A program made the translations under genes and the position numbers. The notes beneath the pieces were generated by a model. It made no database searches and was not told where the DNA came from. It saw only the letters and a program-made list of their open reading frames with translations. This document shows positions 3,562 to 50,382 of a stretch of DNA of 64,000 bases, in pieces. Origin of the DNA: an uncultured Alphaproteobacteria bacterium (lineage in GTDB: Bacteria > Pseudomonadota > Alphaproteobacteria > CAAHEQ01 > UBA3637); NCBI GenBank assembly GCA_934203105.1, contig CAKPYQ010000001.1, forward strand, positions 37,270 through 101,269, given 5' to 3'. Position 1 is the first letter of the stretch, and the number at the start of each line of letters is the position of its first letter.

Positions 3562-5580
3562 ATGTTTGAAAAGAAAATAATGAAGAATTTAACAAATTTT
3601 ACACAAACCTTATTTGAATGCGAAAGCCAAAGACTGAACTTATGGCTGCCGGTGGCATTTGCTTTGGGAATCATTTGCTATTTTTCATTACCCTTTGAGC
3701 CAACACTTTTTATCCCCATCCTCGCTTTTATTTTATCCTTGACGGGATACATGGTTTTGCGCTTAAAAAGCAATGCCGCACTTTTGCTTTTGTTTATCGC
3801 ATTTTTCTTGGGCGGTTTTATACGCATTTTAATCCAAACGGATATAGCGGCCGCGCCCTTTATTCATAAAAGCTATTCTTTCGTATCCGTTGTCGGACGC
3901 GTCGAAAAAGTCGAATGGCGACAAGCCGGCATTCGGTTGACTTTATCCGAACTTACAATCAACAAAATCCCCGAAAAAGAAAAGCCCGTTCGGATTCGCG
4001 TCTCCGCAAATGGCCATAAAATCATACCAAAAGTCGGTGATTTTGTCGCATTAAAAGCCAAACTATCGCCGCCATCGCTTGCGTGGTACCCGAACGGATA
4101 TAATTTTGCAAGATTGGCTTTTTATCAACAAATCGGCGCAACCGGTTTTGCAACCAGTCGTTTAAAAGTCATTTCAACCAACAATAAAACCAGCCGTCTG
4201 GAAAATATCAGAATGGCCATCTTAAAACGCATTTTAAGCATTTTGCCCAAAGACACGGGAAACATAGCCGTTGCTTTGGTAACCGGAGAACAAGGCGGTG
4301 TTTCACCCGCCATTCGCGACAATTACACCGGCGCCGGCATTGTTCACGTTTTGTCCGTATCCGGATTTCATATGAGCTTAATTGCCGGATTTATCTTTGC
4401 CCTGCTCCGGTTTATATTCAGCCTTATTCCCACGATATCTTTACGCTATAACACCAAAAAGATTTGCGCTTTGTTGGCATTGATTTTAACATTCGGCTAT
4501 TTACTGATTTCCGGAATGGCCATACCGGCCGTCCGATCCTATTTAATGATTGCTTTCGTCTTAATTGCGGTCATATTGGACAGACAAGCATTATCAATGC
4601 GTTCGGTTATGTGGGCCGGATTTTTAATTTTACTGATCAGCCCGCAAGTCTTACTAACCGCCAGTTTTGCATTATCTTTCGGCGCAGTGATTGCTTTGAT
4701 TGCCGGCTATGAAAGCTTGGGCCAACAGTTCAAACACTTCTTTGCGGCAAAGCCCGCATGGGTTAAATGGACGTTGGGTGCTTTTTGTGTTTTCATCATT
4801 ATGAACTTAATCGCCCATTTTGCAACCGCACCGATTGCCGCTTACCATTTTCACCGATATAATAATTACGGCGTACTGGGCAACTTTTTAACCAGCACGA
4901 CATTCAGCTTTTTAATTATGCCACTGCTGTTTATCGCTACTATTTTAATGCCGATCGGATTGGATCGCCCGTTTATTTTCATCGTCGGATTTTTATTGGA
5001 GAAAATCAATTCAGTGACTGCGTGGATTAACTCGTTGCCTTATGCTACGATTTTTATTCCGTCCTTTCCCGATTGGGGATACGGGCTGATTTTATTCGGC
5101 GGATTATGGATTTGCATTTGGCAAAGCAAAATCCGTTATTTAGGCTTTGCGATTTTAATGATCGGAACGCTTTCGCTTTTCTGTCATCAAACGCCGGACT
5201 TGATTATCGGGCAAGGCGGCAAGTTAATCGCTGTGCGCCAAGACGACTCTTTTGCCTTTACGGATTTGCGCAAACAAAAAGCTTTTCGCAAAGCGTGGTT
5301 GGAAGCCAACGGCATAGATCCGACCGAACACCAATATAAAATAAACAACACCGACAACTTCACCGTCAAAGGATTAAAAATCAACCCGACCGGCAAAGGA
5401 TCGGGCGACATCATCATTAACACAAGCGGTAAAGCTTGCTTTGCCCGAAAGCTGTGTATCCCGCGCGGCAAATTATGGAAAGAAGGAACGCATACGTTAT
5501 TTATCAAGAACGGGGACATTAAAATTGAAACTTCGGCCGACGGCACTTTTAACCGCCCGTGGGGACAAGGAAAGTTTTAA
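3562..5580 (+). CDS. comEC: ComEC/Rec2-family DNA-internalisation competence membrane protein (start uncertain)
   Basis: The competence-domain motif GAGIVHVLSVSGFHMSLIAGF lies in a polytopic membrane protein of about 670 aa. The ORF-track start at 3493 would overlap the divergent uppP start. The start was therefore moved to the Met at 3562, with 3535 or 3580 as alternatives. Confidence 0.75.
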   Translation: MFEKKIMKNLTNFTQTLFECESQRLNLWLPVAFALGIICYFSLPFEPTLFIPILAFILSLTGYMVLRLKSNAALLLLFIAFFLGGFIRILIQTDIAAAPFIHKSYSFVSVVGRVEKVEWRQAGIRLTLSELTINKIPEKEKPVRIRVSANGHKIIPKVGDFVALKAKLSPPSLAWYPNGYNFARLAFYQQIGATGFATSRLKVISTNNKTSRLENIRMAILKRILSILPKDTGNIAVALVTGEQGGVSPAIRDNYTGAGIVHVLSVSGFHMSLIAGFIFALLRFIFSLIPTISLRYNTKKICALLALILTFGYLLISGMAIPAVRSYLMIAFVLIAVILDRQALSMRSVMWAGFLILLISPQVLLTASFALSFGAVIALIAGYESLGQQFKHFFAAKPAWVKWTLGAFCVFIIMNLIAHFATAPIAAYHFHRYNNYGVLGNFLTSTTFSFLIMPLLFIATILMPIGLDRPFIFIVGFLLEKINSVTAWINSLPYATIFIPSFPDWGYGLILFGGLWICIWQSKIRYLGFAILMIGTLSLFCHQTPDLIIGQGGKLIAVRQDDSFAFTDLRKQKAFRKAWLEANGIDPTEHQYKINNTDNFTVKGLKINPTGKGSGDIIINTSGKACFARKLCIPRGKLWKEGTHTLFIKNGDIKIETSADGTFNRPWGQGKF

Positions 5581-18895: not shown

Positions 18896-20899
18896 ATGAA
18901 ACCATTTTTTCAAATCGGTCGAAGTATGATCGAAATGCTGGCGGTATTGGCAATTATCGGCGTGCTGTCAATTGCGGGGATTTTGGGCTATAAATTGGCT
19001 TTAAACAGCTTCATCGCAAACGACATTCTAAACGACGTCCGTTTGGCTGCGGCGACTGTACTGCACCAAGACCAACGAAAAATTGAAAATCAAAAATTGA
19101 TTGATATATCCGAATTTCATCAAACTATTAAATTTGATATGGAAGCATTTCAAGACGATTGGGAAATATTTTCCATTCGTGTTTACGATGTGCCAAAGGG
19201 CGTTTGTCGATCCGTTTTGCGCAAAATCACCGATGAATATAAAATCCGTGTCGGAGAAGAAGGCCCGATTTACATCGATGACATTTCAATATGTGATCAA
19301 GAATTAAATGAAATGTTGTTTTATTTCGGAGATGCGGGCTATATTTGCTCGACCCCTTGCGAAGACGGTGAAATCGGTTGTTGCAACGGCTGCAAATGTG
19401 ACGACGGTGCCGATTGCGTATCCGACGAAGTTTCCGGCGAACAAATGTGTTGCCCGTCCGAACAAATGGCGTGCAACGGACGTTGTTACACCGCTTGCGG
19501 ACAAGGAATGCAGTTTGATCCGACCACTTGCACATGCGTTTGCGGCACCGACAGCAGTGGCCGCCCGCTGTTCCAAGATGCCGACGGCAAATGCACACGT
19601 TGTCCCGACATCGGTGGCGCGATGCAACTGCTTTTGAAGAACGGAACTTGTGAATGCGAAAAACCCGGTTATGTTTATATTGAATCGGCTGGTGAATGCC
19701 AAAAGATCAGCTGTGACCCGCAAGAAGGTGCCGGCGGATACAAATGTACCATTAACGGCATTTTATGTGGCGTCGGCTGTGACGAAAACGCCAAAAGTTG
19801 CAACGGCATTTGTTGGCCAAACGGTTGTCCGGACAAAACTACGTTTAACAGAATGCCCAATGCACACAGGGGTTTCGGGCAAGAATTCCATTGTCAAAAA
19901 AACAAAAATGACAGTTGCTATTACGACTATGATATAGGCGAATGGTCCGTCAACAAATATTTGGGCAAAGAAAGAACCGATTTTCGTTGTTGTCAAGCCG
20001 ACAGCAATTGCAACTGCCAAAGCGGGCTTTGCGATCAAAGCTATTGCGCTGCAAGATGGCCGGGAAAAGCAAACTATGAAGTCATTTATTATAATGAAGG
20101 TCGCGGCGGTTGCTATTTTGCCCAAGAGCACGTTTTCTGCTACCCGACCGAAAGTAATTTAAATGGAAATTGGCATTGCTTTATCACCAGCGGATTAAAA
20201 ACAGGCGAACAAAAAACATGTGATACAACTTGTTCGGCGGCCGATATGCCGTCATGCAATGCAAAATGCGATCCGGATGCGCTTTGCAATGTTTATAACA
20301 TGGGTATGCACGCAGACAGCAATGGTTATTGTTGCACCACGATCAACGGACGAAACATCTGCGCCAAAGGAACGTATTTTTACGTCAAGACATCGGATTT
20401 AAAATACAATCGTTGTGGCGTGGATTGTTCGGCCGACGGCACATGTGAATTGGGCGATTGTTCCGGACAATGCCCAAGCGGCGAATATACCGAACTGAAC
20501 AATGTTTACGGTTGTGCTCATGGCAGAATCGGTTGTTACTATAACGGCAATTATATGGCCGGCAGAGAAGGCTTTTCATATGATTGCACTGTTGATAAAA
20601 CAACGCCTTGCGGTTCCAAATGCGACATCGATGGCAATTTGTGTGAAATCGTAAAAGATTTGGCTTGCGCACCGGACTTTATCGGCGCTTGCACAGACGC
20701 AAACGGCAATACGGTCGATTGCAAAAAGTGCCAAGACACCAAGGGCAACGAAGTTGTTTGCAAACAATGTGTAGCAGATCAACCGGTTACAAAAGAATGT
20801 ATTTGTCCGGCTCATACCGAAACGGCCGAAGGACAGCTTTGCTGTTTAAAAACGCACCAATTGGTCAATGGCGGATGTAATTTGTTAAGCGGATCTTAA
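18896..20899 (+). CDS. giant cysteine-rich secreted protein with type IV prepilin-like (class III signal) N-terminus
   Basis: The N-terminus MKPFFQIG|RSMIEMLAVLAIIGVLSIAGILGY has a short basic leader, then Gly, then a hydrophobic helix with Glu at +5. These are the hallmarks of the prepilin-peptidase substrate. About 500 residues follow with more than 70 Cys in CxC/CC/CxxC arrangements. Confidence 0.6.
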   Translation: MKPFFQIGRSMIEMLAVLAIIGVLSIAGILGYKLALNSFIANDILNDVRLAAATVLHQDQRKIENQKLIDISEFHQTIKFDMEAFQDDWEIFSIRVYDVPKGVCRSVLRKITDEYKIRVGEEGPIYIDDISICDQELNEMLFYFGDAGYICSTPCEDGEIGCCNGCKCDDGADCVSDEVSGEQMCCPSEQMACNGRCYTACGQGMQFDPTTCTCVCGTDSSGRPLFQDADGKCTRCPDIGGAMQLLLKNGTCECEKPGYVYIESAGECQKISCDPQEGAGGYKCTINGILCGVGCDENAKSCNGICWPNGCPDKTTFNRMPNAHRGFGQEFHCQKNKNDSCYYDYDIGEWSVNKYLGKERTDFRCCQADSNCNCQSGLCDQSYCAARWPGKANYEVIYYNEGRGGCYFAQEHVFCYPTESNLNGNWHCFITSGLKTGEQKTCDTTCSAADMPSCNAKCDPDALCNVYNMGMHADSNGYCCTTINGRNICAKGTYFYVKTSDLKYNRCGVDCSADGTCELGDCSGQCPSGEYTELNNVYGCAHGRIGCYYNGNYMAGREGFSYDCTVDKTTPCGSKCDIDGNLCEIVKDLACAPDFIGACTDANGNTVDCKKCQDTKGNEVVCKQCVADQPVTKECICPAHTETAEGQLCCLKTHQLVNGGCNLLSGS

Positions 20900-22644: not shown

Positions 22645-25600
22645 TTACACGTCCATCACGTTGTCTGTCCAAAGTTCGCATTGTGTCATAACTGTTTGAA
22701 CGGCATCATCAACACCTTCTGGGGGATATTTATGCTTTTTTAACAATTTTTTTATCATCATACGCATTTTGGCGCGCGCTGTTTCTTTTTTCTGCCAATC
22801 TATTGTTTTATTTTTGCGCAAAGTTTCGGTGAGTTCTTTTGTAATAGCAATTAATTCATCATTTTCATAAAAATCTTTAACTGCTTGTGGACGAGCCAAT
22901 GCATCATAAAAAGCTGCTTCTTCAGCATTAAGCCCTAAATCATCACCTTCCTTTTGTGCTGTGGCAATTTGTTTTGCCAAATTAAGCAGCTCCTCAATAA
23001 CTTGTTCATTAGTCAACATACCGTTCAAATAGCGGTTCATAGATTCTTGTATCATTTCACTGAACTTTTCCGAACGCACAACATTGGTATGGCGATAAAT
23101 AGAAATCTGCTCAGCTATTAATTTTTTCAACAATTCGACCGCCAAATTTTTTTCTTTCATCTTGGACACTTCATCCAAAAATTTCGGGTCAAACAGCGAA
23201 AATTCTTCTTTTATATCTGAAAACAGATTAATTACACCATCGCTTTTTATACTCTGCCCCAACAGCTCGTTGATACGCTTATTCATTTCCGGCAAAGATA
23301 TTTTCTTTTGCCCACCGCCTTCGGTAAAACGCAAAATCATAATACGAACAGCTTCCATAAATGCTGCCTCAATACGCAATATTTCTTCAACAATAGATGC
23401 GCAAAGAGACAAAGCCTGATGTAACATAAGGGCTTGCTTAATAAATGCGTCTTTTTCTTTATTTTTCTCTCTGGCAATAATAAAGTTTGCGGCACCGCTT
23501 ATCAATCTTGCTCGGACTAAATTTGAACCGGTAGCAAATTCGCTATAATCAAAACCGTGCAATAAATCGCGACAAACCTGCAATTTTTCTTTGAATTTAT
23601 TATATGCTGTGGTAGCAATATCCATATTACCATAGTTCTTTCTGTCGCGGAGAGTATAATCATTCATCGCCTTTTTCAAAGCACTGGCAATACCGATATA
23701 ATCAACCACCAAACCGCCTTCTTTATCTTCAAATACGCGATTAACACGAGCAATCGCCTGCATCAGGTTATAACCTTCCATCGGTTTATAAATATACATT
23801 GTCGCAAGCGATGGTACATCAAAACCGGTTAGCCACATATCAACAACAATCGCAATCTTCAAAGGATCATTATTATCTTTAAATTTACGTGCTAAATCTT
23901 CCTTATGAGATTTATTACCAATAATAGCTCGCCAATCTTCTGGATCATCATTACCGGATGTCATAACCACAGCAACTTTATCTTTCCACGCGGGGCGTAA
24001 CTCCAAAATTCGATGATAAATTTTCAATGCAATCGGACGAGAATAAGCTACAATCATAGCCTTACCGGTTAATAAATTTTCGCGGTAATTTTCGTAGTGA
24101 TCCAAAATATCGCAGACAAGCGAATTGATAGTATCATCGTCGCTTAATATTGTTTCCATTTGCCCGAGTTGTTTTTTACTTTTTTCAATGACCTCTGGAT
24201 CGGCATTTTGTGCCATTAAATCATATTCAGCATCAATCAGTTGTAAAATTTCCGGTTTTAAATGAAGTTTTATCACGCGGCTTTCATAATAAACCGGACG
24301 CGTTGCACCATCTTCTACTGCTTGTGTCATATCGTAAACATCGATATAATCGCCAAATACCTCTCGCGTGTTGCGGTCATCAAGAGAAAGCGGTGTCCCC
24401 GTAAAGCCAATATATGTCGCATTTGGCAGAGAATTACGAATAATTCGTGCCGTTCCGACTTTGATATTTCCTTTTTTATCTATCTTTTCAGACAAGCCAT
24501 ATTGACCGCGGTGCGCCTCATCAGCCATAACGATAATATTCCGTCGCTCTGACAGTGGCTCAACTGCTTCCTCAAACTTTTGCATCGTGGTAAAGAAAAT
24601 ACCATTGGCTTTGATACCATTCAAAAGCTGTTTCAAATGTTCTCGGCTTGTTGCTTGCACCGGTTCTTGGCGCAAAAAATCTTTGCATTTAGCAAATTGC
24701 GTATAAAGTTGGTCATCTAAATCGTTACGATCTGTAATAACTACTATTGTCGGGCTGTTTAATGCGCTTTGCAGTAAATGAGCATAAAATACCATAGAAA
24801 GAGATTTGCCACTACCTTGCGTGTGCCAAAAGACACCGCCTTTACCATCAGTTTGCGTGGCGCGTTTGGTCGATTCGATCGCTTTTTTTACCGCAAAGTA
24901 TTGATGATAACCAGCCAAAATTTTTGACCTCCCCTTATTTTCGGCAGAAAAGCAAATAAAATTTTTCAAAATATCCAGCAGGCGCGATTTTTCAAAAATC
25001 CCATTAAAAAATGTATCAAATTGCGCATATTTGGTGTTTTCGTAGGAACCATCAACCGTTTTCCATTCCATAAAACGAGTCTCATCAGAAGTAATCGTTC
25101 CGGCTTTAGATACCGCCAAATCACTCATGACACAGATTGCATTATATATAAACATAGACGGGATTTCGTGCTTATAGTTTTGAATTTGCCGATATGCTTC
25201 CGAAGCATCTGTTTCTTCTCGCGACGGAGATTTCAATTCCATCAGCACAAGTGGCAACCCGTTGATAAACAGCAACACATCCGGACGTTTTTCGCTGTTT
25301 TCAATGAAGGTCCATTGGTTGGCAACAATGAAGGAGTTATTATCCGGATTTTCATAATCAATCAGATAAACAATCGTATCGCGTGGCTCGCCTTTTTCAG
25401 TATAGCGGACGGTAATGCCATTTTGCAAATAATCCATAAAAATGGCATTTTTTTGCGTCAATTCGGCATTTTCAAAATTTTTGAGCTTAAAAAGAGCCTC
25501 GTTTATTGCCTCATCCGGCAAATCTGGATTGATTTGATGTAGAGAATTTGTCAGTATCGGTTCATACAATGGCGAAGTAAAATCCCGCGTTTCCACATCC

Positions 25601-25698
25601 GGCCCATAAACATGTGTATAGCCAATTTCTTCAAACAACTCAATAATCGACTTTTCATACGCTTCTTCATTTACTGGATTGATGAAAGTATTTGTCAT
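22645..25698 (-). CDS. hsdR: type I restriction enzyme R subunit (HsdR)
   Basis: 1017 aa. The SF2 helicase motif I is HTQGSGKSLSM and the DEAH motif II is VMADEAHRGQ. The N-terminal nuclease region and the size are typical of HsdR. The start overlaps the upstream gene by 4 bp. Confidence 0.88.
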   Translation of the reverse strand: MTNTFINPVNEEAYEKSIIELFEEIGYTHVYGPDVETRDFTSPLYEPILTNSLHQINPDLPDEAINEALFKLKNFENAELTQKNAIFMDYLQNGITVRYTEKGEPRDTIVYLIDYENPDNNSFIVANQWTFIENSEKRPDVLLFINGLPLVLMELKSPSREETDASEAYRQIQNYKHEIPSMFIYNAICVMSDLAVSKAGTITSDETRFMEWKTVDGSYENTKYAQFDTFFNGIFEKSRLLDILKNFICFSAENKGRSKILAGYHQYFAVKKAIESTKRATQTDGKGGVFWHTQGSGKSLSMVFYAHLLQSALNSPTIVVITDRNDLDDQLYTQFAKCKDFLRQEPVQATSREHLKQLLNGIKANGIFFTTMQKFEEAVEPLSERRNIIVMADEAHRGQYGLSEKIDKKGNIKVGTARIIRNSLPNATYIGFTGTPLSLDDRNTREVFGDYIDVYDMTQAVEDGATRPVYYESRVIKLHLKPEILQLIDAEYDLMAQNADPEVIEKSKKQLGQMETILSDDDTINSLVCDILDHYENYRENLLTGKAMIVAYSRPIALKIYHRILELRPAWKDKVAVVMTSGNDDPEDWRAIIGNKSHKEDLARKFKDNNDPLKIAIVVDMWLTGFDVPSLATMYIYKPMEGYNLMQAIARVNRVFEDKEGGLVVDYIGIASALKKAMNDYTLRDRKNYGNMDIATTAYNKFKEKLQVCRDLLHGFDYSEFATGSNLVRARLISGAANFIIAREKNKEKDAFIKQALMLHQALSLCASIVEEILRIEAAFMEAVRIMILRFTEGGGQKKISLPEMNKRINELLGQSIKSDGVINLFSDIKEEFSLFDPKFLDEVSKMKEKNLAVELLKKLIAEQISIYRHTNVVRSEKFSEMIQESMNRYLNGMLTNEQVIEELLNLAKQIATAQKEGDDLGLNAEEAAFYDALARPQAVKDFYENDELIAITKELTETLRKNKTIDWQKKETARAKMRMMIKKLLKKHKYPPEGVDDAVQTVMTQCELWTDNVMDV

Positions 25699-43529: not shown

Positions 43530-44216
43530 ATGCGGGTACTGTTAATCGAAGATGATAAGTCAATGGCTCAAAACATCAATATGATTTTGACCAAAGAAGG
43601 TATGGTTGTTGATGTTGCAAACTGTGGCGAAGACGGCGCGGAATATGGCAAGCTTTATGATTACGACATCATCATTTTGGATTTGATGTTGCCTGATGTC
43701 GATGGCTTTGAAGTTTTGAAAAAATTCCGTTTGGAAAAAATTTCAACACCGGTTTTGATTTTGTCCGGATTAACTGCTCCTGACAAAAAAGTGCAAGGAT
43801 TTATGGACGGCGCTGACGATTATTTAACCAAACCGTTTGATAAATCTGAATTAATTGCCCGTATCAAAGCGATTGTTCGCCGCTCGCAAGGACATTCCAA
43901 ATCCGTTTTAAATGTGGGAAAATTAGAAATCAACCTTGATTCGAAAACGGTTTCCGTCGGCGGAGAAGTCGTTCATTTAACCGGCAAAGAATTTGCTATT
44001 TTGGAATTATTAGCATTGCGACAAGGGACGACCTTAAATAAAGAACAATTTTTAAATCATTTATACGGCGGAATGGACGAGCCGGAATTAAAAATTATTG
44101 ACGTATTTATTTGCAAACTGCGTAAAAAATTACAAAAAGCAACCGGTGGAGAAGATTATATCGGTACGATTTGGGGACGCGGATATTTGTTGCAAGCTCC
44201 GGAAGCAAAAAAGTAA
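43530..44216 (+). CDS. ctrA: cell-cycle response regulator CtrA (OmpR-family DNA-binding response regulator)
   Basis: The protein aligns along its whole length with the Caulobacter CtrA I recall. Shared segments include [46 protein letters not shown], and especially the C-terminal [28 protein letters not shown] and TIWGRGY.L. Confidence 0.9.
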
Positions 44217-44416
44217 AAGTTTCACAAAGAATATTTAAAATCAGCATCGTCTTAATTTTTTGAAGATGTTTATTGTTGTGAATATTTTGCCCCCCTTGTG
44301 CTGTTATTCTGAACGAAGCAAAGAAGCTGTTTAAATCACTGTCATGGCCAAATGTGCGCTGCGCCAAAATTCGCGCGCCCGCGCCGCACATTTCACCATG
44401 AGTGAATGAGGTATCC

Positions 44417-44459
44417 CAATCGTCCCCGCGGATTGATCCGCGCGGCGCGGGGACGATTG
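44417..44459. repeat. palindromic element Q1 (14-bp perfect inverted repeat caatcgtccccgcg / cgcggggacgattg, 15-nt loop)
   Basis: Read directly from the sequence. Confidence 0.8.
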
Positions 44460-44519
44460 ATTCTTGGTGTCATTCTGAGCGAAGCGAAGAATCTCTTAAT
44501 ATGTGGCCTTGGGCGCAAA

Positions 44520-44558
44520 GTGGGGGACGCGAAATTTTCGCGCCGCGCGTCCCCCCAC
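44520..44558. repeat. palindromic element Q2 (gtgggggacgcg ... cgcgtccccccac with nested cgcgaaattttcgcg palindrome)
   Basis: Read directly from the sequence. Confidence 0.8.
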
Positions 44559-44626
44559 TTGATAAGCTGTTTTTTTCCACTCGTCATTCTGAACGAAGTG
44601 AAGAATCTTTTGAAGTATGGCACCCT

Positions 44627-44671
44627 AAAATGTGCGGCGCGCAAATCTCCGCGCGTCCGCGCCGCACATTT
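44627..44671. repeat. palindromic element P2 (aaaatgtgcggcgc ... gcgccgcacatttt, 14-bp perfect arms)
   Basis: Read directly from the sequence. P1 at 44350-44393 is a diverged copy. Confidence 0.8.
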
Positions 44672-44932
44672 TGCTATATTCGATGACGCACATCAACTCA
44701 ATAAAAAATCCTCCACAACTCATTCAAAAAAACTTCTTTCCTATATGAACAAAAACGATCGTTTAAAGTCAATAGATTTTTTTGCGGCGCGACCCTCTAT
44801 AACTTATTGAAAATAAACAAAAGCCAATTTTTATATTTTGCTTGAAATACGACGAACACAAACGATCGTTTATGTAATATATGAAAGAAGCGGTTTTTTG
44901 ATTTAGTTTAACAGAGAAAAAAGGAGATAAAA

Positions 44933-47140
44933 ATGAATAAAAATCAGCTATTAAACATCAAAAAAATGATTTTTGAGTTGGGGCGTGGGGGCAGCAAAAA
45001 TCATTTTTTTGATCGGGTGAATAACGTGCGGGAAGTTGAGAGATTCTTCGCTATCGCTCAGAATGACGATTGCGAAAACGCCAGCAAGAGGGGACGCGCC
45101 GTGCGAAAATTTTCGCGTCCCCTCTTGGATTGTTTTATTCGCCGTTATTCGGGAAAAAGCGCCCAAACACAAACCGGCCGGTCAATGCTTGAAATGCTGG
45201 GTGTGCTGGCGATCATCGGCGTGCTGTCGGTCGGCGCAATCATGGGCTTTCGGTACGCCATCAACCGCCACAAAGCAAACGAAACGATTTACGACGTTAT
45301 GCTGCGCGCGACCAACGTCCCGATGGCTTGGGACAATTACGCCGAGCTGCACGACTTTAAATATCTGTTCCCCGAGCTTCGTCCAAACGATGTCAATCCG
45401 GTCGGCTTTGCGGTTGAAACTTGGGCCGAACCTGCGACCAGCAAATACGCTTACCGAGTCGAAGTCGCGGACGTTCCAAGCGCTGTGTGCCGGCAAATTA
45501 TTGCTTTAAATCCGCCGGATATCTCGCTGTACAAAGCAGGCTCCGCAATCGATCGAACGGGCATTCATGCGACACAAAACGATTGCGGATCGGACAAAAC
45601 GAACATGTACTTTTTGTTCGAAGAAGGTTGGTTTGATCCTACGCCTGGTCCTGATCCAACGCCGGGTCCGGGACCGGAGCCGGGACCAGAGCCTGGACCT
45701 GAACCGGAATGCGCGACGAACAATGATTGTGCAGCGGGCCAAGTTTGCAAAAACGGCATTTGCGAAGAGTGTACTTTGAACTGTACAGGCGCTTGCGAGC
45801 GATTGAATGCAACGACTTGTTCGTGCGAGGTTTTAGCGGGATGCACGCCGTGCGCTGATGCCTCTGATTGCCCCTCCGGCAACTATTGCGATGAAGGCGA
45901 ATGTCAGACTTGTGATAAAACTTGCGCCGGCGCGTGTGAAGAATTGGATACCGCGACGTGTTCGTGCGTTGCTAAATCAGATTGCACGCCTTGTTCCGAT
46001 AGCTCCGAATGTGGCGACGGGCAATACTGCAACGGAGACAAGTGCGATAACTGCGATCTGACTTGCGACGGGGCTTGTGAAGAATTGAACACCGCGACAT
46101 GTTCGTGCGTTGCCAAGTCAAACTGTACGCCGTGTTCCGATAGCTCCGAGTGTGATGACGGACAATACTGTAACGGCGGCAAGTGCGACGGTTGCGATCT
46201 GACTTGTTCGGGCGCTTGCGAAGAATTGAATACCGCGACGTGTTCATGTGTCGCCAAATCCAACTGTACGCCGTGCTCCGATAGCTCCGAATGTGGTGAA
46301 GGACAATACTGTAACGGAGGCAAATGCGATACTTGCGATCTGACTTGTTCGGGCGCTTGTGAAGAATTGGACGCTGCGACGTGTTCGTGCGTTGCTAAGT
46401 CAAACTGCACGCCGTGCACCAGCAACGCAGATTGCGAAACGGGCAGCTATTGCGACGGCGTCGTTTGCACGCCGTGCCCCAGCGCTCAAAGCGGGTATGT
46501 GTGTTGTTCGGTCAAGCCGATCGACGGCGACAATCCGTTCGATCATGTATGGGTCGGCGATCCTTTGGGCGAGGGTTACTGCTGCACCAGCAAAGACGAA
46601 AGCGAGGAGTGTTGCACAGCCTATAACGCGGACTACGTTTACAAAGACGGTAAGTGTCAAGAATTTAAGTGTGACGACGGTTATCAAGCGGTAACGAATT
46701 ATGCTTCCGACGGCACAAAATCCGGCAAAGCCTGTTGCGAGGTGAAGGAGGATGAAACCTCTACAAACTCATACGGATGGACAAGACAATCAACAGGATG
46801 GACAATAGCAGGAGCCATTAACGGTAGTTGTTGTTCAGGATGGAGTTTTATAGGAGAAACTGAAGGAACTGTTGATTCATATCACACTGCTACTACATAT
46901 AACAATTCTTATGATTTAAAAACAAATGGTGGAGTAATGTATTGCGCTAAGCCGTTTAATTATGAAAAGAAAGTCTGGTATCCTGGACAAACAGATCCCG
47001 TGCAAGGCCCTAAGCGCGAAGATTATTATCCGAGCGCTTCGAAATATTGCTGTAAGACCAATTCTAGTTACGATAGTAGTACTACAACTTGTACATGTTC
47101 CGATTCCGGTGATCCGAAAAATGGATCGAGATGTGATTAA
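44933..47140 (+). CDS. giant cysteine-rich secreted protein, paralog of the 18896 gene, with prepilin-like segment (QTG|RSMLEMLGVLAIIGVLS) and 4 tandem 47-aa Cys modules; true start ambiguous
   Basis: A strong RBS (aaaaaggagataaaaATG) precedes 44933, but that start gives an 84-aa leader that runs through a palindromic repeat. Alternatives are TTG at 45125 or degeneration of the 5' end. Downstream there is a Pro-rich linker (PTPGPDPTPGPGPEPGPEPGPEPE). The repeat unit is CTPCSDSSECGDGQYCNGGKCD.CDLTC.GACEELNTATCSCVAKSN, and the C-terminal region is Cys-rich. Confidence 0.55.
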   Translation: MNKNQLLNIKKMIFELGRGGSKNHFFDRVNNVREVERFFAIAQNDDCENASKRGRAVRKFSRPLLDCFIRRYSGKSAQTQTGRSMLEMLGVLAIIGVLSVGAIMGFRYAINRHKANETIYDVMLRATNVPMAWDNYAELHDFKYLFPELRPNDVNPVGFAVETWAEPATSKYAYRVEVADVPSAVCRQIIALNPPDISLYKAGSAIDRTGIHATQNDCGSDKTNMYFLFEEGWFDPTPGPDPTPGPGPEPGPEPGPEPECATNNDCAAGQVCKNGICEECTLNCTGACERLNATTCSCEVLAGCTPCADASDCPSGNYCDEGECQTCDKTCAGACEELDTATCSCVAKSDCTPCSDSSECGDGQYCNGDKCDNCDLTCDGACEELNTATCSCVAKSNCTPCSDSSECDDGQYCNGGKCDGCDLTCSGACEELNTATCSCVAKSNCTPCSDSSECGEGQYCNGGKCDTCDLTCSGACEELDAATCSCVAKSNCTPCTSNADCETGSYCDGVVCTPCPSAQSGYVCCSVKPIDGDNPFDHVWVGDPLGEGYCCTSKDESEECCTAYNADYVYKDGKCQEFKCDDGYQAVTNYASDGTKSGKACCEVKEDETSTNSYGWTRQSTGWTIAGAINGSCCSGWSFIGETEGTVDSYHTATTYNNSYDLKTNGGVMYCAKPFNYEKKVWYPGQTDPVQGPKREDYYPSASKYCCKTNSSYDSSTTTCTCSDSGDPKNGSRCD
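45087..45126. repeat. palindromic element Q3 (aagaggggacgcg ... cgcgtcccctctt, 13-bp perfect arms, same loop core gcgaaaattttcgc as Q2), located inside the 5' extension of the second pilin-like ORF
   Basis: Read directly from the sequence. It is in frame with the 44933 ORF and translates as KRGRAVRKFSRPL. Confidence 0.8.
45843..46440. repeat. about 4.3 tandem copies of a 141-bp coding repeat (47-aa Cys module), very high nucleotide identity between copies
   Basis: Protein-level repeats read from the translation. The nucleotide copies, for example ...acgtgttcgtgcgttgctaagtcaaactg..., recur at a 141-bp spacing. Confidence 0.75.
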
Positions 47141-49642: not shown

Positions 49643-49798
49643 AACATTTCCTTGATTTAGGGTTGTTTTGCAGTAATTTTAATCGCTTCTCCCCCATTTT
49701 GTCAATAGAAATATGATTTTTATACGCATAAAAAAAAGCACCACAGGCGAACCTGTGGCACTCTTTTTTTTGGAAAGACTTACAAGCTAACAGAATTA

Positions 49799-50173
49799 CT
49801 AATTTTTCTTCATCGTATCGGGGTAATCACCAGTTGATCCACCGCGATTTCCTACGTCAACAGCACCTGAAGTTGAATCAACAGTTACGTAGTCGATGAT
49901 CAAACCGGCGATCGCAACAATACCCAAACCAACGCACAATGCCGCGAACCATTTCCAGTTCAATTTACCGAAAATTGCAAAGAATGCCAAAACAATCAAA
50001 CCAAAACCGCCAACGATGAAAATCATCTTACGGGAATATTGGAACGCTTCGGAAACTTTAGTAAATGCGATACCCCAAGCAGTTTCAGATGAGCTAGTAG
50101 CAAAAGCATCGCCCGCCCACAACATAACGCCGGCCACCAAGGCCATTGCCATAATAGAGAATAATTTGTTCAT
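49799..50173 (-). CDS. putative TrbC/VirB2-family T4SS pilin-like protein (orphan)
   Basis: 124 aa. A long signal peptide ends in AFA. Two hydrophobic helices (MIFIVGGFGLIVLAFFAIFG and WFAALCVGLGIVAIAGLII) are separated by a short basic loop, which is the VirB2/TrbC topology. The segment GLGIVAIAG resembles VirB2 LGIVAIGI. No other T4SS genes are in the window. Confidence 0.4.
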   Translation of the reverse strand: MNKLFSIMAMALVAGVMLWAGDAFATSSSETAWGIAFTKVSEAFQYSRKMIFIVGGFGLIVLAFFAIFGKLNWKWFAALCVGLGIVAIAGLIIDYVTVDSTSGAVDVGNRGGSTGDYPDTMKKN

Positions 50174-50382
50174 AATAACCTCCTTGTTATAAAGTTGTTT
50201 TTCCCTATACTCTTTTTTTATTATACTAAAAAAATTACTTATTGTCTAGCATTTTTTTATGCACTTGTCCAGCACTTTTTTATGAGAAAATCCATATTAC
50301 TACTTTTGCACGTATAAAATAGGAATTATACAACCATTTTAGGAAAACATTCCAAAACCACATTAAATAATTGAATAAAATC

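Follow-up and report, generated by a model that had tools for sequence, protein, structure and literature searches.

Mosaic arrays of short repeats are known from Neisseria, in which neisserial intergenic mosaic elements (NIMEs) alternate dRS3 boxes, of consensus ATTCCC-N8-GGGAAT, with repeat sequence (RS) elements of 50-150 bp near surface-protein and pilS genes, differ between strains in their number of repeats, and were reported as not seen outside the genus (PMC1797815). One sequence conforming to this consensus, GTCATTCCCGCGAAAGCGGGAATC, sits upstream of gonococcal pilE with an inverted partner 62 nt away (PMC7593972). The NIME array is the closest analogue of the locus described here, which belongs to an uncultured alphaproteobacterium from human gut metagenomes. 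Within the window, meaning the whole 64-kb stretch of DNA that was analysed, the interval 44217-45184 runs from the stop codon of ctrA to the body of a pilin-like gene, and is crowded with boxes and hairpins. With a probability of roughly 0.6, this interval is a mosaic hairpin-repeat array that constitutes the recombination-prone 5' control region of a variable pilin-like surface protein.

The array consists of short A boxes and longer hairpins in the order A1-P1-Q1-A2-Q2-A3-P2, followed by a module termed S1 and then by R, A4 and Q3. Among the boxes, A2 (44469-44493, plus strand) is an exact copy, GTC-ATTCT-GA-GC-GAA-GC-GA-AGAAT-C, A3 (44583-44607, plus) is a GAACGAAGTG variant, and A1 (44303-44327, plus) is a degenerate copy with four mismatches; A4 (45042-45067, minus) carries a 1-nt insertion and lies inside the open reading frame (ORF) of the pilin-like gene, in which it is translated as RFFAIAQND. 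The A-box pattern matches the window three times at three or fewer mismatches, against 0.00 expected, and no further copy of A, P or Q was found in the rest of the 64-kb window. These repeats are genuine, being far above chance and seen again in independent assemblies. The original prediction had listed three families of GC-rich palindromes, and all of the A, P and Q elements it named were recovered in place, with Q arms perfect over 10-14 bp. Its classification fared less well, as A is not a GC-rich palindrome but a box with a small internal hairpin, and the interval really comprises one dRS3-like box and one hairpin superfamily. It also overlooked A4, the R hairpin, and a pair of AAACGATCGTTT sites marking a probable invertible promoter (44753-44871).

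The parallels with NIMEs extend from sequence to arrangement. In both, the boxes are flanked by GTCATTC...GAATC, have GCG(N)NAGC as their mini-hairpin core, and alternate with repeats of approximately 40-120 bp, many of them palindromic; in the window, A boxes start 166 and 114 nt apart, with P and Q units between them. Both types of array adjoin genes for pilins or surface proteins, vary between strains in the number and order of units at a syntenic site, and have boxes that coincide with recombination joints, as proposed for dRS3. Nevertheless, the window box reads ATTCT-N11-AGAAT, rather than the ATTCCC-N8-GGGAAT of NIMEs; the host is a gut alphaproteobacterium; the boxes are mostly direct repeats; the units run in frame into a coding leader; and neither a dRS3-targeting phage nor an IS110-type recombinase was seen in the window or in related loci.

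The A box is 25 nt long, with the consensus GTC-ATTCT-GA-GC-GNA-GC-GA-AGAAT-C, and contains a small internal hairpin with a GCGNAGC mini-hairpin core. The fold was assessed by covariation, using only copies inside matched loci that the search pattern had not itself selected. The pairs 4-24, 5-23, 6-22, 7-21, 8-20, 11-17 and 12-16 were Watson-Crick in 90-97% of cases. At position 6/22, T-A occurred 31 times and C-G 30 times; at position 11/17, G-C occurred 50 times and A-T 12 times. Among 53 distinct sequences, changes on both sides were found at six of these seven pairs; compensatory cells numbered 49, compared with 12.5 +/- 5 in shuffles, none of the 500 of which scored as high, and 91% of cells were paired, compared with at most 49% when the partners were slid. 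The two tandem G.A pairs hardly vary, nor do the flanks GTC...C, and the central base of GCG-N-AGC is free (A 35, C 21, G 10 and T 6 in 72 copies). GCGNAGC is the mini-hairpin DNA motif, which is exceptionally stable as DNA (PMC13037366). As this motif forms its core, the A box may be recognised as a folded single strand, most likely of DNA. The centre of the A box corresponds to the described mini-hairpins, GCGNAGC and GCGNNAGC, and the centre of dRS3 is GCGAAAGC; unlike these boxes, mini-hairpin DNA, studied by Hirao and colleagues, is reportedly known from phage replication origins and engineered oligonucleotides, and was not previously known as the core of a genome-wide repeat family.

This box is not confined to the organism studied here. 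An exact-pattern scan with one genome per species placed it in at least 120 loci, and in more than 120 genomes, across at least 15 phyla, which among the matches listed include Saccharibacteria, Nitrospirota, Acidobacteriota, Bacteroidota, Chloroflexota, Bacillota, Cyanobacteria, Planctomycetota and Campylobacterota, as well as others. A scan for GTC-hairpin-C boxes that was agnostic to the sequence of the stem returned 257 instances, compared with about 20 in shuffles, and these included the exact dRS3-type GTCATTCCCGCGAAAGCGGGAATC four times; outside this organism, such exact dRS3-type boxes share genomes with A boxes. The A box and neisserial dRS3 are accordingly best read, at the level of motif and fold, as putative sister members of one GTC-hairpin-C superfamily. 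Among the matches listed, an inverted partner accompanies 54% of the A boxes from other phyla (median loop, 29 nt), and at other loci half copies of the 5' side lie upstream of full boxes; by contrast, those in the window are mostly direct repeats with other hairpins between them. In four contigs from Acidobacteriota and Saccharimonadales (L013, L032, L039 and L045), the doublets themselves sit within an extended palindrome specific to the lineage, CAGGCTGCGGAAAAA...TTTTTCCGCAGCCTG. At its 3' side the box ends in GAATC, which fits GANTC, the sequence targeted by the CcrM methylase of Alphaproteobacteria; this may be a coincidence, given that the box is pan-bacterial. No description of the A-box DNA, nor of the peptides it encodes (HSERSEES, FAQNDK, SLRMT and others), was found in the literature. 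A GIY-YIG ORF lying directly after the box in L007 was considered as a partner, and dropped because such a neighbour occurs at only two of approximately 120 listed loci; phages were not enriched as carriers, with the box present on 42 viral contigs among 2.9 million.

The hairpins between the boxes would take the role of the neisserial RS elements, as lineage-specific units with long stems. When folded as single-stranded DNA and compared with shuffles, they gave z-scores from -2.6 to -5.6. All but one lie on the plus strand: P1 (44342-44401; z = -2.6) has its core at 44350-44393 and a 22-nt imperfect pair of outer arms; Q1 (44417-44459; z = -4.0) has a perfect 14-bp stem; Q2 (44517-44561; z = -3.0) has a perfect 10-bp core at 44522-44555 that is extended with one bulge; P2 (44627-44672; z = -4.9) has a perfect 15-bp stem; and R (44957-45013; z = -5.3), in the leader-coding region, has a perfect AT-rich stem of 19 bp and a GC-rich loop. 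Q3 (45085-45127, minus strand; z = -5.6) has a perfect 14-bp stem and a loop that is inverted relative to Q1 and Q2, making it the sole inverted copy once loops are oriented with their A/T-rich half first. P and Q have a common design, in which the stem closes with GCG/CGC and the loop comprises 7-9 A/T-rich bases followed by CGCGCG, and by this design they evidently form one superfamily of hairpins with perfect stems of 10-15 bp and an asymmetric loop. The stems themselves are almost wholly different among the subfamilies (AAATGTGCGGCGCG, CAATCGTCCCCGCG and CAAGAGGGGACGCG, and AAAAATGATTTTTG in R), each being perfectly complementary, and Q2 and Q3 differ by compensated changes. Hence the stems diverge in sequence yet keep their complementarity, from which it is apparent that the shape of the hairpin is maintained, whether by selection or by template-switch repair. 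The nested palindrome that had been proposed as common to the Q2 and Q3 loops is not identical in the two, being GCGAAATTTTCGC in the former and GCGAAAATTTTCGC in the latter. The P hairpin had no match in the JGI collection, which appears to lack this species.

Comparison with related loci from other assemblies (contigs labelled L001-L196, of which those from the same species are termed conspecific) revealed that the array varies by whole units. Conspecific contigs are 98.7-98.8% identical upstream, until high-identity synteny stops at 44393 and differences involving entire units begin at 44394. The unit A1-P1, approximately 90 nt past the ctrA stop codon, is constant in all strains; L001, L002 and L005 contain this single A-P unit, whereas the window and L003, an independent assembly 97.8% identical over 690 nt, share the full order A1-P1-Q1-A2-Q2-A3-P2, and L004 has half a P hairpin with an A-R unit upstream in the opposite orientation. 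Sub-arrangements of the array recur in several samples and assemblers. Five of the seven distinct ctrA contigs end within the array, and the contigs from the uppS side all end within the pilin gene, which indicates that R, A4, Q3 and the N-terminal stretch of the pilin are repeated elsewhere in those genomes. In agreement with the suggestion that these are interspersed repeats with other genomic copies, L002 has a second cluster ahead of a paralogue of the pilin gene, and other strains have A, P, Q, R and S1 modules in differing contexts and both orientations, in addition to the many genomes with an A box. Cassettes of a pilin gene with its array were also found directly after a CcrM-like methylase gene (L131), or in a third context.

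The clearest joints are at A4. L130 and L002 are 99.2% identical from A4 onwards and have different 5' modules before it, while L127 departs from L130 right behind the box equivalent to A4. Hence the A box behaves as a module boundary, and A4 is, in these alignments, evidently the exact joint between alternative 5' modules on the same pilin body; the pilin body itself also differs between strains. These units were probably moved by recombination rather than by transposition. L130 is a 3403-bp contig with a pilin gene, a FadL/Toluene_X-like gene and an array, the first and last 141 nt of which are identical; as this overlap equals the k of the assembler, the contig represents either a circle of 3262 bp or a tandem unit.

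The array continues into the coding sequence of the pilin-like gene (44933-47140, plus strand), which encodes 735 residues, with the first 82 forming the leader and a C-terminal part that is repetitive and rich in Cys. The predicted prepilin cleavage site is G|R (45178/45179, within 45176-45181, plus), in the context ...QTG|RSMLEMLGVLAIIGVLS, with E at +5. The N-terminus has the features of a prepilin: its leader ends in G, E occupies position +5, and the N-terminal helix, of about 20 residues, is hydrophobic (...QTG|RSMLEMLGVLAIIGVLSVGAI). The N-termini of 120 homologues align on (E/Q)TG|RSM(V/I/L)EMLGVLAIIGVLS, usually after a leader of 6-12 residues, and the domains found in homologues are PF08805 and PF05307, both of type IVb pilins, and PF07963; the 735-aa protein of the window itself matched no Pfam or NCBIfam family, and had no exact record in a look-up. 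Approximately 33 of the 120 have long leaders of 27 to about 150 residues, composed of translated A boxes and GC hairpins: that of L127 contains four tandem KRFFA.AQND units, which are minus-strand A boxes with a 42-nt period, that of L129 reads VILSGREGS...AFRMT, and that of L128 consists of GC-hairpin peptides. Q3 had been predicted to be in frame within this ORF, and indeed reads as KRGRAVRKFSRPL. A sequencing error does not account for this read-through, which reappears in independent assemblies, where strains differ by indels of 6 and 36 nt, and is matched in about a quarter of the 120 homologues.

Translation probably begins at ATG 44933, which is preceded at a distance of 6 nt by the Shine-Dalgarno sequence AAGGAG (44921-44926; the motif with its ATG spans 44921-44935, plus strand), an arrangement conserved in L002, L005 and L139. 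At each locus inspected except L131, the repeats are preceded by a strong Shine-Dalgarno sequence with an ATG that shares the reading frame of the pilin body. This start is moderately favoured because neither of the alternatives, TTG 45125 and ATG 45185, has a ribosome-binding site, and the TTG (45125-45127), as the last 3 nt of the Q3 arm, is buried in a 14-bp GC stem. The ambiguity left by the original prediction is therefore reduced. The long leader would be translated and then cleaved, and its removal at G|R may be the reason that it is tolerated. Its likeness to Rickettsia palindromic elements, raised in the same prediction, is fair as a description of behaviour, which is all that was compared: in both, alphaproteobacterial palindromes lie in frame within a protein-coding gene without destroying it. 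Unlike the rickettsial elements, these units are shorter and mosaic, and are confined to a cleavable leader. In L129 (2225-2380), the leader runs MSYKNKKLESG-RS..., then an insert, then ...GETG|RSMVEML, leaving a 'G RS' remnant ahead of the inserted A doublet; it resembles the product of a fusion between a promoter-and-leader stub and a different pilin body, and P0085 has the same pattern.

Upstream of this gene lies S1 (44726-44897), which is probably an Mpi-type inverton. Two AAACGATCGTTT sites, each a perfect 12-bp palindrome (44753-44764 and 44860-44871), enclose a 95-nt centre (44765-44859), within imperfect outer inverted repeats at 44726-44746 and 44877-44897. The pair is spaced by exactly 95 nt in 13 of 13 related loci with the module and was found in none of the other 174 loci. 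The centre has the orientation of the window at eight places and is inverted at three, these being paralogous or orthologous modules, and two pairs of contigs (L001/L005 and L002b/L130) are identical as far as the second site and diverge directly after it. The site matches the repeat ARACGTTCGTN, which flanks the Mpi-controlled promoters of Bacteroides fragilis (PMC8375218), at 10 of 11 positions through its inverted-repeat core, AAACGATCGTT. The resemblance extends to a short, repeat-flanked segment upstream of a gene for a surface structure, to the presence of several modules per genome, and to an encoded serine invertase, probably of the Mpi family, here on a conspecific contig (L002, 13730-14374), the best NCBIfam match of which is the master DNA invertase Mpi (NF009949, E = 7e-77), 1.8 kb from an S1 module. 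The same-locus inversion of a 94-nt segment between AAACGATCGTTT sites was seen in an unrelated metagenome organism, in which the flanks of L191 (671-788) and L196 (157-274) are 91-97% identical on opposite strands and the centre on the same strand; this segment lies upstream of a secreted surface protein with GGAIYN (Pmp-type) repeats. S1 differs from Mpi promoters in its alphaproteobacterial host, in a segment of 95 nt, compared with approximately 170-190 bp, in a promoter apparently divided by the segment boundary, with its -35 within and its -10 beyond, and in that both orientations were seen across modules, rather than at this locus.

The candidate -35 hexamer in the S1 centre, TTGACT (44767-44772), is on the minus strand, and the -10-like hexamer outside it, TAATAT (44875-44880), is fixed on the plus strand. 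The arrangement TTGACT-17-TAATAT arises only when the centre is inverted, and a promoter scan flags it in L130 (3279-3307); the same scan returned no comparable promoter for the orientation in the window. The window might therefore represent the off state of the switch, although this is less certain than the assignment of S1 as an inverton. Another combination within the centre, TTGAAA-19-TATATT, was rejected as a promoter, as neither hexamer is conserved among copies. Related organisms have homopolymeric tracts ahead of their pilin genes: in L128 (3915-3950), the spacer of TTGACT-20-TATGAT contains 13 G's, and L131 has a run of 11 G's at about 4845-4865. A G tract in a promoter spacer is the classic layout of a promoter that is phase-variable through slipped-strand mispairing.

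Combining these observations suggests how the region could operate. A boxes would mark the boundaries of modules, with P, Q and R hairpins between them. S1 would act as an invertible segment, in which the -35 hexamer meets the fixed -10 only in the orientation opposite to that of the window, leaving the gene off here. R, A4 and Q3 would have ended up between the start codon and the site of prepilin cleavage, a position in which they would be tolerated as long as the frame remains open, because the leader is removed without leaving the cytoplasm. Several points weigh against this reading. The strict 20-bp dRS3 box has no match in the window at one mismatch or fewer; no recurrent neighbouring gene was found across the 120 A-box matches listed, nor was an enzyme acting on the boxes identified. 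Perfect stems could be produced by template-switch repair, rather than by selection. GC-rich palindromes lack stop codons and two of the three A-box frames are open, such that open frames are partly expected, and the leader evolves almost neutrally, with many amino-acid changes. For S1, the TTGACT-17-TAATAT promoter matches at just 9 of 12 positions, and similar matches arise in shuffles; no two contigs exhibit both orientations at this very locus; the L002 invertase, at 257.7 bits, falls just under the NCBIfam cut-off of 272; and neither tblastn with that invertase nor Pfam searches of 17 ORFs, a set that excluded ctrA and the pilin-like ORFs, found an invertase or other recombinase gene in the 64-kb window. 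Finally, metagenome assemblies may mis-join at repeats, making long-range contexts such as that of L001 uncertain.

Other explanations for the array are less probable. That the cluster is an assembly artefact, arising from a collapsed or chimeric repeat, can be given almost no credence: most short-read assemblies do break in the array region, but L003 independently reproduces the order of the units, and sub-arrangements are shared between samples and assemblers. It is unlikely that the array is instead a pile-up, in a permissive intergenic region, of elements copied as folded single strands by a transposase acting in trans, be it of the Y1/HUH type, as in REP-associated tyrosine transposases (RAYTs), or of the IS110 type. 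Repetitive extragenic palindromic (REP) sequences are imperfect palindromes with a conserved 5' GTAG head and hundreds of copies per genome, specific to a lineage. The A box is REP-like in design, with conserved 5' bases followed by a covarying hairpin, and the array resembles the intergenic mosaic clusters of 35-45 nt GC-rich palindromes formed by bacterial interspersed mosaic elements (BIMEs) and by REP doublets (REPINs) mobilised by RAYTs in Enterobacteria and Pseudomonas. The inverted doublets common in other phyla are REPIN-like, the 5' half copies lie upstream of full boxes, and repeat units occur at different loci in both orientations. The dispersal implied by the proposal of REP-like or miniature inverted-repeat transposable element (MITE)-like mobility is borne out. 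Other features speak against transposition of this kind, however: the head is GTC(A), not GTAG, the box is nearly identical across phyla, and REPs are denser than a single cluster in 64 kb. Neither a RAYT nor any other transposase was found in the Pfam-scanned parts of the window or among ORFs within 300 nt of the 120 listed A-box loci. Although A(+)...A(-) pairs reminiscent of MITEs exist, the doublets inspected lack flanking direct duplications of a target site. Instead, strains differ through the loss or duplication of sequence between homologous units and through exchange at boxes that they share, for which recombination suffices.

A role at the level of RNA, in which A1-P1 terminates ctrA while R, A4 and Q3 serve as attenuators, stabilisers or translational brakes in the pilin mRNA, and the repeats are kept for that purpose, is improbable. 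The constancy of the A1-P unit behind ctrA would fit, as would the strength of the predicted stems and the A-run, GC stem and T-run of P2, which give it the look of a bidirectional terminator. Yet a terminator scan called no canonical terminator, counter to the original prediction that the elements might be transcription terminators, the loops being 14-16 nt and the T-runs short; Rfam matched no family, the scan of 44150-45300 (E <= 5) returning nothing except chance microRNA-like matches to an AT hairpin; the orientation of the hairpins varies among copies; and GCGNAGC is a core known for its stability as DNA (PMC13037366). Such a role would also leave the exchange of modules at A boxes, and the breaks in synteny, unexplained. 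More arguable, if still doubtful, is that the long leader is spurious, a product of ORF calling, with the repeats in a 5' untranslated region and translation starting at TTG 45125 or ATG 45185. Stop-poor repeats make long open frames likely, and the leader is poorly conserved in amino acids. Moreover, the end of an A box in L129 supplies an in-frame ATG that would give a canonical 6-residue leader, MTGETG, and the TTG would give MGYNAG in L002 and L130. However, besides the lack of a Shine-Dalgarno sequence at these codons and its strong presence upstream, all indels in the leader are multiples of 3, as is the tandem period of 42 nt, and none of the 120 homologues is truncated at its N-terminus or lacks a leader, whereas out-of-frame insertions would be expected twice as often if the frame were irrelevant.

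The left flank of the array is formed by ctrA (43530-44216, plus strand), a conserved gene that scores 376 bits against the cut-off of 350 for CtrA (NCBIfam NF045991), and the protein of which is identical on 21 metagenome contigs. A second pilin-like paralogue of 667 residues (18896-20899, plus) is matched by the L002 pilin in tblastn, and has neither an upstream array nor a Pfam match. The window also encodes the R subunit of a type I restriction enzyme (22645-25698, minus; HSDR_N, SWI2_SNF2 and T1RH-like_C), followed by three ORFs, extending up to 28784, that probably include its M and S subunits. Between UDG and pyrH (approximately 49643-50382), strains have either one or two small TrbC/VirB2-like genes, of 120-124 residues (L182-L187).

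Every component of this locus belongs to a known kind; the novelty lies in the occurrence of a dRS3-like array outside Neisseria, in a box common to many phyla, and in the in-frame use of a pilin leader. A bolder proposal, which we consider speculative and rather improbable, is that GTC-hairpin-C boxes constitute one pan-bacterial class of recombination sites in folded single-stranded DNA, served by a widely distributed enzyme, and placed here inside a disposable leader. If true, pilin bodies could be recombined with new modules of promoter and leader while the mature protein stays free of scars, adding cassette exchange to an Mpi-type on/off switch. NIME-type arrays have been treated as a neisserial peculiarity, whereas this locus suggests that their core box is a structured motif of many phyla; if so, the enzyme acting on dRS3-like boxes becomes approachable by comparative genomics. 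A cleaved, cytoplasmic leader would be a safe place for repeats, providing a simple rationale for their in-frame insertion. Promoter inversion of the Mpi type, known from gut Bacteroidales, would be extended to the pilin-like genes of uncultured gut Alphaproteobacteria. The locus also explains, at a practical level, why metagenome assemblies of these organisms break at this point.

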